Shown: positions 45,001-51,000 of the stretch, piece after piece | How the letters are laid out: each line of letters starts with the position of its first letter | How positions within the stretch are numbered: position 1 is the first letter of the stretch | NCBI RefSeq assembly: GCF_051903065.1 | Contig: NZ_CP178438.1 | Direction: 5' to 3' (one strand) | DNA length: 64,000 nt | From: Escherichia coli | GTDB taxonomy: Bacteria; Pseudomonadota; Gammaproteobacteria; Enterobacterales; Enterobacteriaceae | Program-made: the position numbers

Positions 45001-48000
45001 CTTATTTATTTCAATAAATATATCGCCTAAAAACAACGCGGGGCAGGGAATGACTGCCCCATTTTTAATTTTTAAGTAGGGTGCGTGGTTGACTACTCGT
45101 TAGCAAATAATCAAATAGCTAAAGCATTCATCGTGTTGCCCGTATTCATACCCATGTGACTTTGACAACGGTACTCCTTAGAAACTCTCTTCGGACTGTT
45201 GCCGAAATGTTTGCGGAACGCATAAATAAAATAAGATGTACTGGCATAACCACATTGTTCGGCAATTTTATTGACTGAACCTTCTACGCGTATCAAATTT
45301 TTTGCGTGCTGCATTCTGGCATCTAATAGAATCTGTGAGAATGTCGTTTGCTCTTGCTTTAGTTTTTTCTTCAACAGGCTTTCACTGATGTACAGGCAGT
45401 CACAAATATCTTTCAGCTTCCATGGGTGCGCCAGCTTCATGTTGACAATATTTCTCACTTTCCCGGAAACGGATAGCACACCGTTAGTTAATAGTGTAAT
45501 GAAACCTTTGCATGCGGCAAATATAGACAGGCAAGAAAAAAGCAAAAGTTCTGAAAAATTATGATGATTGCGTTCTTCCGAGTTGAGATAAGCAATCATT
45601 TCATTAAGCAATCCAGTCGGTACATTTGAAGCACGTAAAAACTTCGCAGGAACAGGCACCGTCACTGTCTGGATGTTAGTGCATTGTAGATATTTTTTAA
45701 TGGTATTTTCATTAAATCCGATTTCTTTAAAATGCCGCTCATAAGGTTCAAAATGTGTACGAACAGCGTTATCTACCATCAGGATCTCGCCGTCAGAGAA
45801 GGCGTAATCTTTATCTAAAATGTTAGCGTTGAAAGCATGATGAATAAATATAACAGAACAAACGAGCGACATTTTATCTCCTTAAAACAATAAAGTTTTA
45901 TCGATACTTTTTTAACATTTCATATTTATAATTTGCTGTTTATTTTCAGTCTTGCAAACTATTGATAATGAAATGTGTAAGATCTCTTGCAATGCGACCC
46001 ATTTCTGAAATACCCAGCTGATCAATTGCCGAAAAAATGGCTATCAACGTAAGTGTCAGTAATAAGACAACCACAATTACAGACATGATTTCTTTATAGT
46101 TGTCTCTTTGTGTGATTTTATTTTTCACTGTGGTCGCATGCATTTCAAATATGTTTATTTAGCGGATAACGTTAAAAATCGTTAATCAGTATGCTTAATA
46201 TAACAGGCTGGAAAAAAGAGGAAATAGGACTGGTGCTTCAGTACTGAGCGGAGTTTCTTACAGCTGTAGGCAGAAGTTTAAATCTTATAGTATGTAGTTT
46301 AATTTAATCCATGTGAGCAAATTGCGCGATAATAGTCAATGAGGAATTCTTCTGCTGTGCGGATGACAGCAGAAGAAATGAGAAGAGGCATTAATTTGAT
46401 GGTTCTAATTCAACCGGAATACTTTTATAGCCAGGAATGCCACTTAATGGATCGTGGTTATCAAGTGTTAGCATGTGATTCGATTCTGGAAAATAGGTCA
46501 CCAGTGAGCGGTCAGCCATAGGGTAAATGACCACTTTTAATCTATCCATGCGGCGGTGATGCTGCCAACTTACTGATTTAGTGTATGATGGTGTTTTTGA
46601 GGTGCTCCAGTGGCTTCTGTTTCTATCAGCTGTCCCTCCTGTTCAGCTACTGACGGGGTGGTGCGTAACGGCAAAAGCACCGCCGGACATCAGCGCTATC
46701 TCTGCTCTCACTGCCGTAAAACATGGCAACTGCAGTTCACTTACACCGCTTCTCAACCCGGTACGCACCAGAAAATCATTGATATGGCCATGAATGGCGT
46801 TGGATGCCGGGCAACAGCCCGCATTATGGGCGTTGGCCTCAACACGATTTTACGTCACTTAAAAAACTCAGGCCGCAGTCGGTAACCTCGCGCATACAGC
46901 CGGGCAGTGACGTCATCGTCTGCGCGGAAATGGACGAACAGTGGGGCTATGTCGGGGCTAAATCGCGCCAGCGCTGGCTGTTTTACGCGTATGACAGGCT
47001 CCGGAAGACGGTTGTTGCGCACGTATTCGGTGAACGCACTATGGCGACGCTGGGGCGTCTTATGAGCCTGCTGTCACCCTTTGACGTGGTGATATGGATG
47101 ACGGATGGCTGGCCGCTGTATGAATCCCGCCTGAAGGGAAAGCTGCACGTAATCAGCAAGCGATATACGCAGCGAATTGAGCGGCATAACCTGAATCTGA
47201 GGCAGCACCTGGCACGGCTGGGACGGAAGTCGCTGTCGTTCTCAAAATCGGTGGAGCTGCATGACAAAGTCATCGGGCATTATCTGAACATAAAACACTA
47301 TCAATAAGTTGGAGTCATTACCCCATGCGGCGTGAGCTGCGCTTACCGTCTGGCGTAAGCGCAATAAGATTAACTCTTTCGCCGTTTTTTACACGGCAAA
47401 TTTTAGCTTGTTTAGCACTCATAAAGACCACATCTCGTTGACCGAATACCCCTCGATAGCGATCATCCATACCATAAATCGTCGTGTTGTACTGATCGTG
47501 GCTGCGTACTGTCGCCATGACCAGCTTACTGTTAAACGCTGAAGAGGGATCTTCTAACAGCCCTTTGCTGGTAATGAAATTAGCCTTACCTGACGGCGTC
47601 ATCCAGCGCCTTTCAGCAGCTGCATTTATCAGGTGAAAACCACCGGGATGACGGATGCGCTGGTTATAGTCGGCGAACTCTGGCAGCACAGCTTCAATGT
47701 CGTTGCGAATGCGATCATAATCTTCCACCAGATACTCCCAGGCTACCACGCTCTGGGGTAGTGCTGCCTGTGCGATTCCCGCGACCACTGCACACTCTGA
47801 TTTCAGCATTACACCGGCGGGTTTTAACACGCCACGCGAGGCATGAATCATCGACATTGAATCCTCAACGGTTACCGCCTGCGCACCGCTTTTTTGCATG
47901 TCAATCTCGCTACGTCCCAGAACCGGCAGAATATAGCTATGCCGTGCGGTCAGCAGATGAGAGCGGTTAAGCTTAGTGGCTACGTGTACCGCCAGATCTA

Positions 48001-51000
48001 ATTGCGTTAACGGTACAGCGCTCGCTTCCCGATCTGGCATTGCCAGTGCAAAGTTGCCCCCCATGCAGATCAATGCTCGAGCCTGCCCTGTACATATTGC
48101 TTGCATGCTGGCAATTGCAGCATGTCCAGGTGCTTGAGGTGGTGTGAAGCCATAGCGCTCACCCAGGCGAGCCAGAAACTCTGCAGACGGTTTCTCGGTG
48201 ATACCGACGGTTCGGTCGCCCTGTACATTAGAGTGGCCACGTAGTGGGCAGATACCCGCACCAGGCTTGCCAATGTTACCTTTCATCAACAGCAGATTGA
48301 CCAGTTGCTGTACATTCTGGGTACCATGTTCGTGCTGAGTGATCCCCATTCCGTAACAGATAATGGTTCGTTCGGCAGCGGCATATGCATCAGCCAGTTC
48401 GGCGATTTGTGTCTGACTTAGTCCAGAAATACGTTCGATATCTTTCCACTCGGAATTGAGCACGTCACGGCGTAGCTCGTCAAAGCCGACGGTATGCGTT
48501 TGAATAAATTCGTCATCCAGCAATGAGGGCCGACCTGCGGCGCTTGCAGCATCATCGCGCTCAATTAACAGGCGCATCATCCCCTTGAGCAACGCCATAT
48601 CACCACCAATGCGCACGTTATAGTAGGCACTGGCCAACTGAGTCTCAGAGTTCGTCAGCATTTCAAACGGGTTTTGCGGTGCGGTAAATCGCTCCAGGCC
48701 ACGTTCCTGTAGAGGATTGATGGCGATCATTTTCGCTCCCCGTTTCACTAAAGCGCGCAACGAAGTCAGCATGCGAGGGTGGTTTGTACCAGGGTTATGC
48801 CCAATGCAAATGACTAAATCGCACTTCTCAAAGTCTTCCAGCAACACGGTCCCTTTACCTACACCGATACTCGCTGCCAAACCCACGCTTGTCGGTTCAT
48901 GGCACATGTTGGAGCAGTCGGGAAAGTTATTGCTCCCGTATTCACGGGCAAAAAGCTGATAAAGAAAGGCAGCCTCATTGGAAGTGCGGCCCGAAGTATA
49001 GAATTCAACCTGATTGGGATCACTATAGCTTTGAAGGCGTGCGCCAATTTCATCGAAAGCTTGTTGCCAGCTTAATGGCTTGTAACAGTCGCTGACGGCA
49101 TCATATTTCAAAGGCTGAGTGAGTCGCCCCGCAGCCTCAAGCTCGTGGTCTCCCCAGGTAAGTAATGATTGAACCGTATTCTCAGCAAAGAAAGAGGCGT
49201 TTACCTGCTTATCCGTGACTTCCCAGGCGATTGCTTTTGCGCCGTTTTCACAAATGTCGAATGACGCACTGTGCTTAGGATCTGGCCATGCACAACCCGG
49301 ACAGTCAAAGCCCTCTGGCTTATTCATGTCAAACATGGCAATAACATCCTGGCGTATATCCATCTGCTTACGTACTGCATTCGCTACGGATTTAACAGCA
49401 CCCCAACCACCGGCAGCTCCCTGGTAGGATTCAATTTTTTTCTTCATCTACTTATCCTGTGTGGAAATGAATTATTAGGATTTGTAATAGCGATGATGCA
49501 CAGTACATACAAAGGGATTATCGCCAACATGGATATATAAGAGTAGGGGACTACTCTCTTTCTATTTTTAATCTATTATCGTTAAACAATAGATTAAATA
49601 CGATAAGGTAAGCATCATCTCTCATAGTGTTTAAATTAACATATTTTTTAATATAAAAAATAAGACTCTGGCTTCAATTGTGCGCGGATTTTCTTACAGG
49701 TGTAGGATAATAGCCTTCACAAAATAATTATCCGCGCAATTTTCGTGAATGGAGCGCATAGACCAATGTCAAAATCACAATTATTCATAGATAAAAGTGA
49801 CACCAATGACTGACTGGACGGTTCCGGCTGAAACCTTGTTTCCTGTTTGTCCATAGGTTGCGCTTAAACCCAGAGGTACTTTGCTTTTATTTACTGTCCC
49901 CAGGGAGACATTTTCTCCCGTAGCCAGTATTTTTCCATTACGCATCAGAGAGACACCCACTCCCGATGCTTTTGTTGCATCTGGTGCTGTGTTAGCAAAC
50001 ACTTGTCTAGCACTGTCAGTGGTAGCACCCGAAAGATAAAATGAGAGCTTTTGTTCACTTGAGCAATATACGCCAAGGGGGATTTCTGCGCTTCCAGGAA
50101 AGTCCGGGAGATTCACGGTGACATTACGACTATCAACAGTGCAGCCGCCTGTTGGCATAACAACACTGTTATTTGAAATAATATTCCACGTAAAATTACG
50201 CGGATTTCCGCTTCCTAACGTGGCAATTTTATACATATGAATACGGGCAATAACTTCCCCGGCTTTTATGACAACTCCACCGGCCGCCCCGACTGGGGTA
50301 ATATAGAGTTTTAACGGTAATGGCATCGGTGTCTTATCACCAATATCCAATACGTTTGTATTTGTCGTCAACGGGAAGGGGTAGGTCACATTATTCCAGT
50401 ACAGCGATCCTTTATATGACTGTAGAGAGCCTGCGAAAGCTGAGCCTTGTACCAGGTTTATATGATCAGTGTCGTACCAGCCGCCGTAATCATTCCAGCA
50501 ACTTATATGCTGAGACAAGTCTACAACCAGATTCTGGCCCGGCTGTATTACAGGGTCGAGATTAACATAAACAGAGGTTGTACCAGCTCCAATACTTGAC
50601 CCGCCATCGACATTACAACTGAAGGCAAAAACTTTGCCTGCCATTAATAGAAGATAAATACCGAACAGGACCTTTATACTGATTGTTTTACCCATGATAT
50701 ATCCTAAGGTTAAAAAATTGATTTAAAAAGAAGGCTAAGAAAATCGAATCGACGTTATTGCCAGGTGTAGATCACATTGATTAGCGCCTCGATCGTTCCC
50801 TGGCTTGCATTTCCATTCACCGTGATAGCTCTTGCCTTAAGTGGAAACTGTGCATTACGAGTGATCTCATCAACAATAACCGTTTTGCTATCGCCATTTT
50901 TTAACGTCGCATCCTGGTCATCCCTCAGCTCTATCTGAATATTTTCGGCAGTACCTTCATTTTTGTAATAACCCGTATTGTCAGTTGAACCTGTCACGAT

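Follow-up and report, generated by a model that had tools for sequence, protein, structure and literature searches.

Insertion hot spots of IS1 were reportedly described by Galas, Calos and Miller in 1980. Hot spots are also credited to Zerbib et al. 1985, as cited in PMC9330008, and the target duplications made by the element are 8 or 9 bp long (PMC12428005). IS1 carries an outward-facing -35 hexamer in its inverted repeat (PMC8764528) and makes hybrid promoters when a -10 hexamer is suitably placed (PMC8764528, PMC9330008); as cited in these two papers, such fusion promoters include Prentki et al. 1986 and the cases of blaTEM-6, acrEF and afaA.

The literature on EvgA activation of ydeP and safA-ydeO concerns K-12 only (PMC4283999). 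Induced acid resistance of MG1655 fell when ydeP was deleted, and YdeP and the YdeO/GadE branch are redundant in EvgS-constitutive resistance (PMC4283999). One paper calls the locus the "ydeP-safA-ydeO operon" (PMC11052181). A literature search for ydeP together with IS1 returned nothing on the allele described here; its sole finding was an IS5 that separates ydeP from ydeQ in HB101/RR1.

We analysed a 64,000-nt stretch of an Escherichia coli genome (GCF_051903065.1, contig NZ_CP178438.1), hereafter the window, with coordinates counted from its start. In this window ydeP is interrupted by an IS1, and the interruption is a genuine but ordinary strain-specific knockout, already known in kind and nothing new. 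We hold with high confidence that an IS1A-type element entered ydeP by the ordinary IS1 route, very recently and confined to one clone, that the shortened YdeP most probably lacks activity or stability, and that safA-ydeO is kept.

The element and its target site

The element occupies positions 46555-47322 (plus strand), which is exactly 768 bp with both ends present, as the initial annotation had described it. It is identical to IS1A of MG1655 (19796-20563) at 767 of 768 positions, and 100% identical to an IS1 of E. coli CEA106S that is annotated "IS1-like element IS1A family transposase". With the MG1655 copy it shares the length, the inverted repeats, insA, the A6C site and insB', and it differs by one substitution (position 444) and by genomic location. 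The left terminal repeat (46555-46577, plus strand) and the right one (47300-47322, plus strand) begin with GGTGATGCTGCC and GGTAATGACTCC; they are imperfect, matching at 18 of 23 positions, and have the GGT start of the IS1 family. The insA gene (46610-46885, plus strand, 91 aa), which runs antiparallel to ydeP, matches positions 1-81 of the IS1 family transposase profile NF033558 and carries an IS1/IS1595 zinc-binding domain, while the insB' frame (46804-47307, plus strand, a 167-aa ORF) matches positions 75-199 of 199 (E = 1.8e-42), so that the two jointly cover the profile. A slippery motif, TTAAAAAAC (A6C), lies at 46859-46867 (plus strand), and a -1 shift there is computed to yield a 232-aa InsAB' fusion ending at 47307.

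Directly abutting the element are two perfect copies of CCATGCGGC, at 46546-46554 and 47323-47331. The probability of a 9-bp match arising by chance at a fixed pair of positions is about 4e-6. At the empty site of E. coli 23CRST027 the same 9 bp occur once, and the flank matches overlap there by exactly 9 bp (record 1894510-1894518). When the element and one copy of the repeat are removed, 46391-46554 joins 47332-49447 in 759 codons with a single terminal stop, identical in DNA and protein to the 23CRST027 gene (WP_000726699.1). The 9-bp duplication and the 759-codon frame that had been reported for the rejoined flanks are both borne out by this realignment. The arrangement is that expected if the target was cut with a stagger, IS1 was joined into the staggered cut, and repair doubled the 9 bp.

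Exact empty sites are found in E. coli 23CRST027 and 23CRST031, both from human faeces in Ecuador. Around the site the window and 23CRST027 show 0 mismatches over 13,037 bp, and with the IS1 excluded 3 SNPs and a single 1-bp indel are all that separates them over 63.2 kb. Because a genome this close to clonal has the empty site, the insertion is a simple and very recent transposition, in agreement with the initial annotation. Its recency implies that the element may be able to transpose. The closest IS1 of the relative's genome is 16.6 kb away and differs from the copy in ydeP at 2 positions.

The truncated YdeP product

The interrupted gene retains an ORF at 47318-49447 (minus strand) of 709 aa, made up of YdeP residues 1-708 and one glycine. 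The GGG codon of this glycine spans the junction between ydeP and IS1, and translation would end at the next codon, a TAA inside the right end of the element (47320-47318, minus strand). The protein had been expected to lose 50 residues and to gain a short IS1-derived tail; the actual loss is 51 residues (709-759), and while the protein does end within the right end of IS1, the tail is a single glycine. The detached 3' remnant (46391-46554, minus strand) holds codons 707/708-759, including a 52-aa ORF that starts at Met708 and runs from 46549 to 46391.

The lost segment is likely to matter. In YdeP, a putative acid-resistance oxidoreductase of the FdhF/YdeP family, residues 642-751 form a Pfam Molydop_binding domain, and removal of 709-759 takes away its last 40% or so, so that an intact C-terminal domain is absent. 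The truncated ORF matches TIGR01701 only up to position 694 of 744. The segment appears conserved, since it lies within family-wide profiles and since the C-terminus of YdeP can be aligned with the last residues of a distant formate dehydrogenase alpha subunit whose structure is solved (9wxb_B). In the molybdopterin enzyme superfamily the C-terminal domain helps to hold the cofactor. Given this domain truncation, loss of function is likely: the shortened protein has most probably lost its activity or its stability, and judged by the Molydop_binding domain ydeP of this strain is a predicted pseudogene.

EvgA boxes and safA-ydeO

EvgA-regulated promoters are said to carry an 18-bp inverted repeat, TTCYTACANNTGTARGAA, reportedly defined by Masuda and Church in 2003 and Itou et al. 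in 2009; our literature search for an EvgA box consensus found nothing. Matches at 17 of 18 positions lie upstream of safA-ydeO (46255-46272, plus strand) and upstream of ydeP (49691-49708, plus strand). They are the only matches in the 64 kb, and at least two occurred in 14 of 100 shuffles. PMC4283999 supports the earlier description of ydeP as a gene for acid resistance that EvgA activates. Between the IS1 and the site upstream of safA-ydeO are 282 bp, in line with the earlier estimate of about 280 bp, and the site is untouched: the region is base-identical to 23CRST027. Both downstream genes are intact, safA (45946-46143, minus strand, 65 aa, as annotated in 23CRST027, whose sequence is identical here) and ydeO (45111-45872, minus strand, 253 aa, matching the YdeO profile NF007407 over 1-253 of 253 at 605 bits).

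Since the promoter region and the coding sequences of safA-ydeO are kept, the route from EvgA through YdeO to GadE should still work, and the YdeP-dependent branch alone would be lost. The strain is expected to show partly lowered EvgA-induced acid resistance. If safA-ydeO is partly expressed by read-through from the ydeP promoter, the insertion would lower safA-ydeO too, and its effect would extend beyond YdeP.

Distribution of the allele

We searched 5,426 complete E. coli genomes with full-length queries in both IS1 orientations and with short junction queries that are not swamped by IS1-rich genomes. None of the 5,426 has an IS1 at the same nucleotide and neither junction was found among them, nor did JGI metagenome contigs give a match when scanned for the exact junctions in both orientations. 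Besides NZ_CP178438.1, the allele was seen in one draft assembly, GCA_036912935.1. For comparison, 5,317 of the complete genomes (98%) have a contiguous ydeP.

Twelve of the 5,426 genomes, scoring at least 80%, have an IS1 elsewhere in the ydeP-safA-ydeO locus: CEA106S, PK-F-10122, ETEC4090, EC556, EC571, EC581, LR-33, TUM2830, 20409, IR53017, CUVET19-970 and SFE8. They have the same element family in the same 4-kb locus, but none has it at this nucleotide. Genomes have IS1 at a median of 11 places, and against this background twelve does not exceed a rough random expectation. In seven of the ten examined ydeP is annotated as intact, and in five of these the IS1 is intergenic. In PK-F-10122 the element cuts into the first part of ydeO, and in EC556 it lies next to a safA-ydeO deletion, with ydeP annotated as intact in both; at the level of match rows, EC571 and EC581 have the same form as EC556. 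A simple IS1 insertion lies inside ydeP in strain 20409, and in TUM2830 an IS1-bounded deletion has removed the 5' part of the gene. A literature search on the status of ydeP in Shigella sonnei found nothing.

A possible hot spot at codon 707/708

In three other lineages, recognised by their flank alleles, an IS1 end lies 1 bp from the present site, in the opposite orientation and at the same nucleotide in all three, although each is represented by a single junction in a visible window of about 100 bp and may not be a simple insertion. Immediately past the duplication the target reads GTGAGCTGC, similar to the IS1 end (GTGATGCTGC), and the site borders on an AT-rich stretch. IS1 ends 1 bp apart in four flank alleles suggest a local hot spot. 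The likeness to known IS1 hot spots lies in this clustering and in the end-like target; the difference is that the three other lineages offer one junction only. If the opposite-orientation element is a simple insertion, its 9-bp duplication is predicted to be CGCCGCATG. On the AP026479 allele the corresponding truncated products would be 716 aa (9-bp duplication) or 714 aa (8-bp duplication), and neither is on record.

C-terminal YdeP fragments on record comprise 52 aa in 89 blocks, 53 aa in 110 and 54 aa in 52. Control fragments of 48 aa (65 blocks) and 57 aa (69 blocks) are similarly frequent, and contigs start at every offset; the fragments reflect a background of random contig ends, and we rejected the idea that contig starts accumulate at the IS1 site.

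Alternative explanations

IS1 is multicopy, and another copy begins at 63959 within the same window; yet that the copy in ydeP is an assembly artefact, a misplaced repeat, is scarcely credible. The target is duplicated perfectly here and has one copy only in the relative, which speaks against it, and misassembly is unlikely because the independent draft GCA_036912935.1, identical to window positions 47213-52447, has a contig that ends in the same junction, with the same 709-aa product and 110 bp of IS1. That the truncated protein still works, making the insertion phenotypically silent, is improbable, though a better prospect. The element sits near the 3' end and 93% of the protein is kept; the catalytic Pfam Molybdopterin match (108-485) is upstream of the truncation, and the ORF still scores 1708.9 bits against the YdeP equivalog model NF007406 (positions 1-708 of 759; cut-off 1473). 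Against these points stand the position of the 51 missing residues within the Molydop_binding domain, the conservation of the segment across the family, and the general role of that domain in holding the cofactor.

Two further explanations concern effects on the neighbourhood and on fitness. The main effect might be regulatory, if a TTGGCA in the left end of IS1 (-35) and a TAGATT in ydeP (-10), separated by an 18-bp spacer (46568-46539, minus strand), formed a speculative hybrid promoter that drove EvgA-independent transcription through the remnant into safA-ydeO. The geometry is that of the documented blaTEM-6, acrEF and afaA promoters, an outward -35-like hexamer 18 bp from a -10-like hexamer of the target, whereas the match here is weak (9 of 12 hexamer positions) and predicted only, and safA-ydeO already has its own regulated promoter. 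Such sites are no commoner than in shuffled sequence (4 in the region against 3.1), the GC-rich 18-bp spacer and a -10 matching at 4 of 6 positions indicate a weak promoter, and a stable hairpin just 3' of the native ydeP stop (46347-46377, minus strand; -17.5 kcal/mol, z = -3.3, without a U-tract) stands between the candidate and safA; we consider a mainly regulatory effect very unlikely. Fixation by selection for loss of ydeP, rather than by target-site bias and drift, is unlikely too, though the least so of these alternatives. In its favour, other lineages show further 3' disruptions of the gene (besides the IS1 end in three alleles, an IS4-family element at nt 2080 and a homopolymer frameshift), and strains 20409 and TUM2830 have IS1 elsewhere in ydeP. 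However, the gene is contiguous in nearly all complete genomes and the allele is limited to one clone, and selection would accept any disrupting position; the identical nucleotide and orientation of the three other junctions argue for target preference instead. Still more doubtful than the regulatory effect is a combination of these ideas, in which codon 707/708 would be a sequence-specified IS1 hot spot, hit independently and in either orientation across four or more lineages, the insertions persisting through loss of YdeP and EvgA-independent transcription of safA-ydeO from an outward -35 placed 18-19 bp from TAGATT. If true, it would amount to recurrent rewiring of an acid-resistance and PhoQ-connector cascade by a mobile element.

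Implications for strain comparison

As a recent, clone-confined knockout, the insertion matters little beyond strain bookkeeping, in which it marks the clone as a natural ydeP mutant. The hint of a hot spot at this codon would be a further example of long-known IS1 behaviour. Together with the empty-site strains 23CRST027 and 23CRST031 the mutant forms a natural pair, near-isogenic over the 63 kb compared, that could be used to test the share of YdeP, an enzyme of still unknown function (PMC4283999), in acid survival. The junction between ydeP and IS1 is a clone-specific PCR marker. An Rfam scan of the whole 64-kb window returned a single match, the fdnG SECIS element.

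Structure of the insertion

The initial annotation of a 768-bp IS1 with a 9-bp target duplication inside the minus-strand gene ydeP is borne out by the element's ends, its flanks and its transposase. The element (window 46555-47322) begins with GGTGATGCTGCCAAC and ends with GGAGTCATTACC, its terminal inverted repeats pair at 18 of their 23 positions, and copies of CCATGCGGC abut it on the left (46546-46554) and on the right (47323-47331). IS1 encodes insA (46610-46885, 91 aa) and an insB' frame ending at 47307, and a -1 shift at the slip site TTAAAAAAC (46859) joins the two into a 232-aa fusion; each ORF hits the NCBIfam profile NF033558 ("IS1 family transposase"), which the two together span completely. 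The element differs from MG1655 IS1A by one base, at position 444, and is 100% identical to a copy in CEA106S that is annotated as IS1A family.

Joining 46391-46554 to 47332-49447 yields a single frame, which agrees with the earlier statement that the flanks restore 759 codons. The truncated ORF (47318-49447, minus strand) encodes 709 aa and matches the YdeP equivalog model NF007406 at positions 1-708 of 759. Its last native residue, Met708, is followed by a GGG codon, to which the target contributes one base and IS1 two, and then by a TAA within the IS1 right end. The C-terminal truncation described previously therefore stands, but its size is 51 residues rather than 50, and the short IS1-derived tail proves to be one glycine.

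Age and distribution of the insertion

Independent searches of 5,426 complete E. coli genomes with the left and the right flank found 100.0% matches in the near-clonal genomes 23CRST027 and 23CRST031; the left flank aligns up to record position 1894518 and the right flank from 1894510 onward, an overlap of exactly 9 bp. The reconstructed empty site is identical to 23CRST027 across 13,037 bp, the reconstructed protein is WP_000726699.1 of that genome, and three SNPs plus one homopolymer indel are the only differences from it in the remaining 63.2 kb of the window. Because the window and this near-clonal genome form a textbook filled-site/empty-site pair, the transposition is taken to be very recent, and the exact empty site in 23CRST027 upholds the earlier reading of a simple, recent event.

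Neither ydeP-IS1 junction was found in the 5,426 complete genomes, using full-length queries in both orientations and short junction queries, which other IS1 copies cannot crowd out. The exact 709-aa product occurs in one record, where it lies at the edge of a 16.9-kb contig in the draft assembly GCA_036912935.1. Window 47213-52447 is reproduced without a mismatch in the final 5,235 bp of this contig, of which 110 bp belong to IS1. This assembly is the same clone, independently assembled, which is evidence against misassembly. The insertion is an ordinary, recent, clone-specific IS1 event.

Consequences for YdeP

Pfam places a Molybdopterin domain at residues 108-485 of YdeP and a Molydop_binding domain at 642-751; the cut after residue 708 takes away the final ~40% of the latter. 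TIGR01701 is matched to 694 of its 744 positions and NF007406 to 708 of 759, and both profiles extend across the lost segment. The native C-terminus aligns with the extreme end of 9wxb_B, a formate dehydrogenase alpha subunit of solved structure. From these comparisons we infer that YdeP function or stability is lost in this strain, and the insertion most likely inactivates the gene. Disruption is unusual, since 5,317 of the 5,426 complete genomes have a contiguous ydeP. Deletion of ydeP in MG1655 reduced induced acid resistance, and under constitutive EvgS either YdeP or the YdeO/GadE branch was by itself enough for resistance (PMC4283999), so a partial phenotype is expected here. The value of the insertion is modest: it provides a natural mutant of ydeP whose near-isogenic relatives keep the empty site, and possibly an additional IS1 hot spot.

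The safA-ydeO side

Both safA (45946-46143) and ydeO (45111-45872, a full-length match to NF007407) are intact. The window was scored with the EvgA consensus, and the two best matches lie at 46255-46272, upstream of safA, and at 49691-49708, upstream of ydeP. Both are base-identical to their counterparts in 23CRST027, in keeping with the earlier remark that the safA-ydeO EvgA box appears untouched, and the distance from IS1 to the safA-proximal site, put at about 280 bp, is 282 bp. As judged from sequence, safA-ydeO and both EvgA-box-like sites are left untouched by IS1.

One paper terms the locus the "ydeP-safA-ydeO operon" (PMC11052181), and if read-through from the ydeP promoter feeds safA-ydeO expression, IS1 would lower that share. 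Directly 3' of the native ydeP stop lies a 12-pair hairpin (46347-46377, minus strand; -17.5 kcal/mol, z = -3.3) that has no U-tract, is kept in all aligned lineages, and might serve to terminate transcription or to stabilise the RNA 3' end. An outward -35 element of IS1 might form a hybrid promoter with a -10-like hexamer in the detached 3' remnant of ydeP, as has been documented for IS1 (PMC8764528, PMC9330008). The promoter scan picked out a minus-strand site (46568-46539) in which TTGGCA, within the IS1 left end, is separated by an 18-bp spacer from TAGATT in the remnant, but these elements are weak and promoter-like sites are no more numerous than in shuffled sequence, which makes such a promoter improbable.

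Recurrence at the site

The 52-aa ORF of the remnant was looked up by exact sequence, a search that sees disruptions solely within ~100 bp upstream of Met708. It recovered three Logan contigs (SRR23037575, ERR15395529 and SRR29657867) that open with the terminal 28-30 nt of the IS1 right end, fused to CGCCGCATGGATAG, the junctions occupying contig positions 1-36, 1-36 and 1-34, respectively. In all three, IS1 lies in the orientation opposite to that in the window, with its junction 1 bp away. Their flanks differ mutually and from the window by 1.4-2.9%, with the first SNPs ~55 bp from the junction, indicating different lineages. The same position and orientation in three lineages, with a fourth 1 bp off, is unlikely by chance, and ydeP codon 707/708 is thus probably a local IS1 hot spot. 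The second junction of the opposite-orientation IS1 was sought in the three samples and not found, and a short junction query showed that this arrangement is absent from the complete E. coli genomes. Some fragments in the remnant's protein cluster are labelled Shigella sonnei, so the three samples may be Shigella. A seeming pile-up of contig starts at the insertion site proved to be background by comparison with control fragments.

Target DNA just past the duplication (47332-47340, GTGAGCTGC) resembles the IS1 left end (46556-46565, GTGATGCTGC), and owing to this likeness BLAST alignments of intact ydeP run 10 bases into IS1. Such likeness fits old observations on IS1 targets and may bear on target choice.

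Other disruptions in the region

The insertion is not new in kind. IS1 lies elsewhere in the ydeP-safA-ydeO neighbourhood in 12 of the 5,426 complete genomes, for example just upstream of safA (ETEC4090, IR53017), clipping the ydeO start (PK-F-10122), inside ydeP (20409) or beside deletions (EC556, TUM2830, SFE8). AP026479.1 carries a 1,654-bp IS4-family element (3299-4952) at ydeP nt 2080 with a 7-bp duplication, and in E. coli DEC6D (AIFY01000030.1) an A6-to-A5 homopolymer frameshift in the ydeP 3' end gives a 710-aa product.

The last 42 bp of the window (63959-64000) are the start, at the left end, of a second IS1 in the same orientation as the ydeP copy. In 23CRST027 this element (1911146-1911913) shows two differences from the ydeP copy, lacks a target duplication and interrupts an ECSE_1600-family autotransporter gene, the 5' piece of which lies on its opposite side; this suggests an IS1-associated deletion. 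In the yddA-ydeO interval (~44159-44707, junction ~44190-44192), ~2.34 kb present in most E. coli is missing, as it is in 23CRST027; the deletion takes the 3' two-thirds of ydeN together with almost the whole of ydeM, and a ydeN pseudogene remains. Rfam SECIS_3 (84 bits) was detected at 12697-12755 on the plus strand within fdnG, the gene for the selenocysteine-containing alpha subunit of formate dehydrogenase-N, where it is expected.
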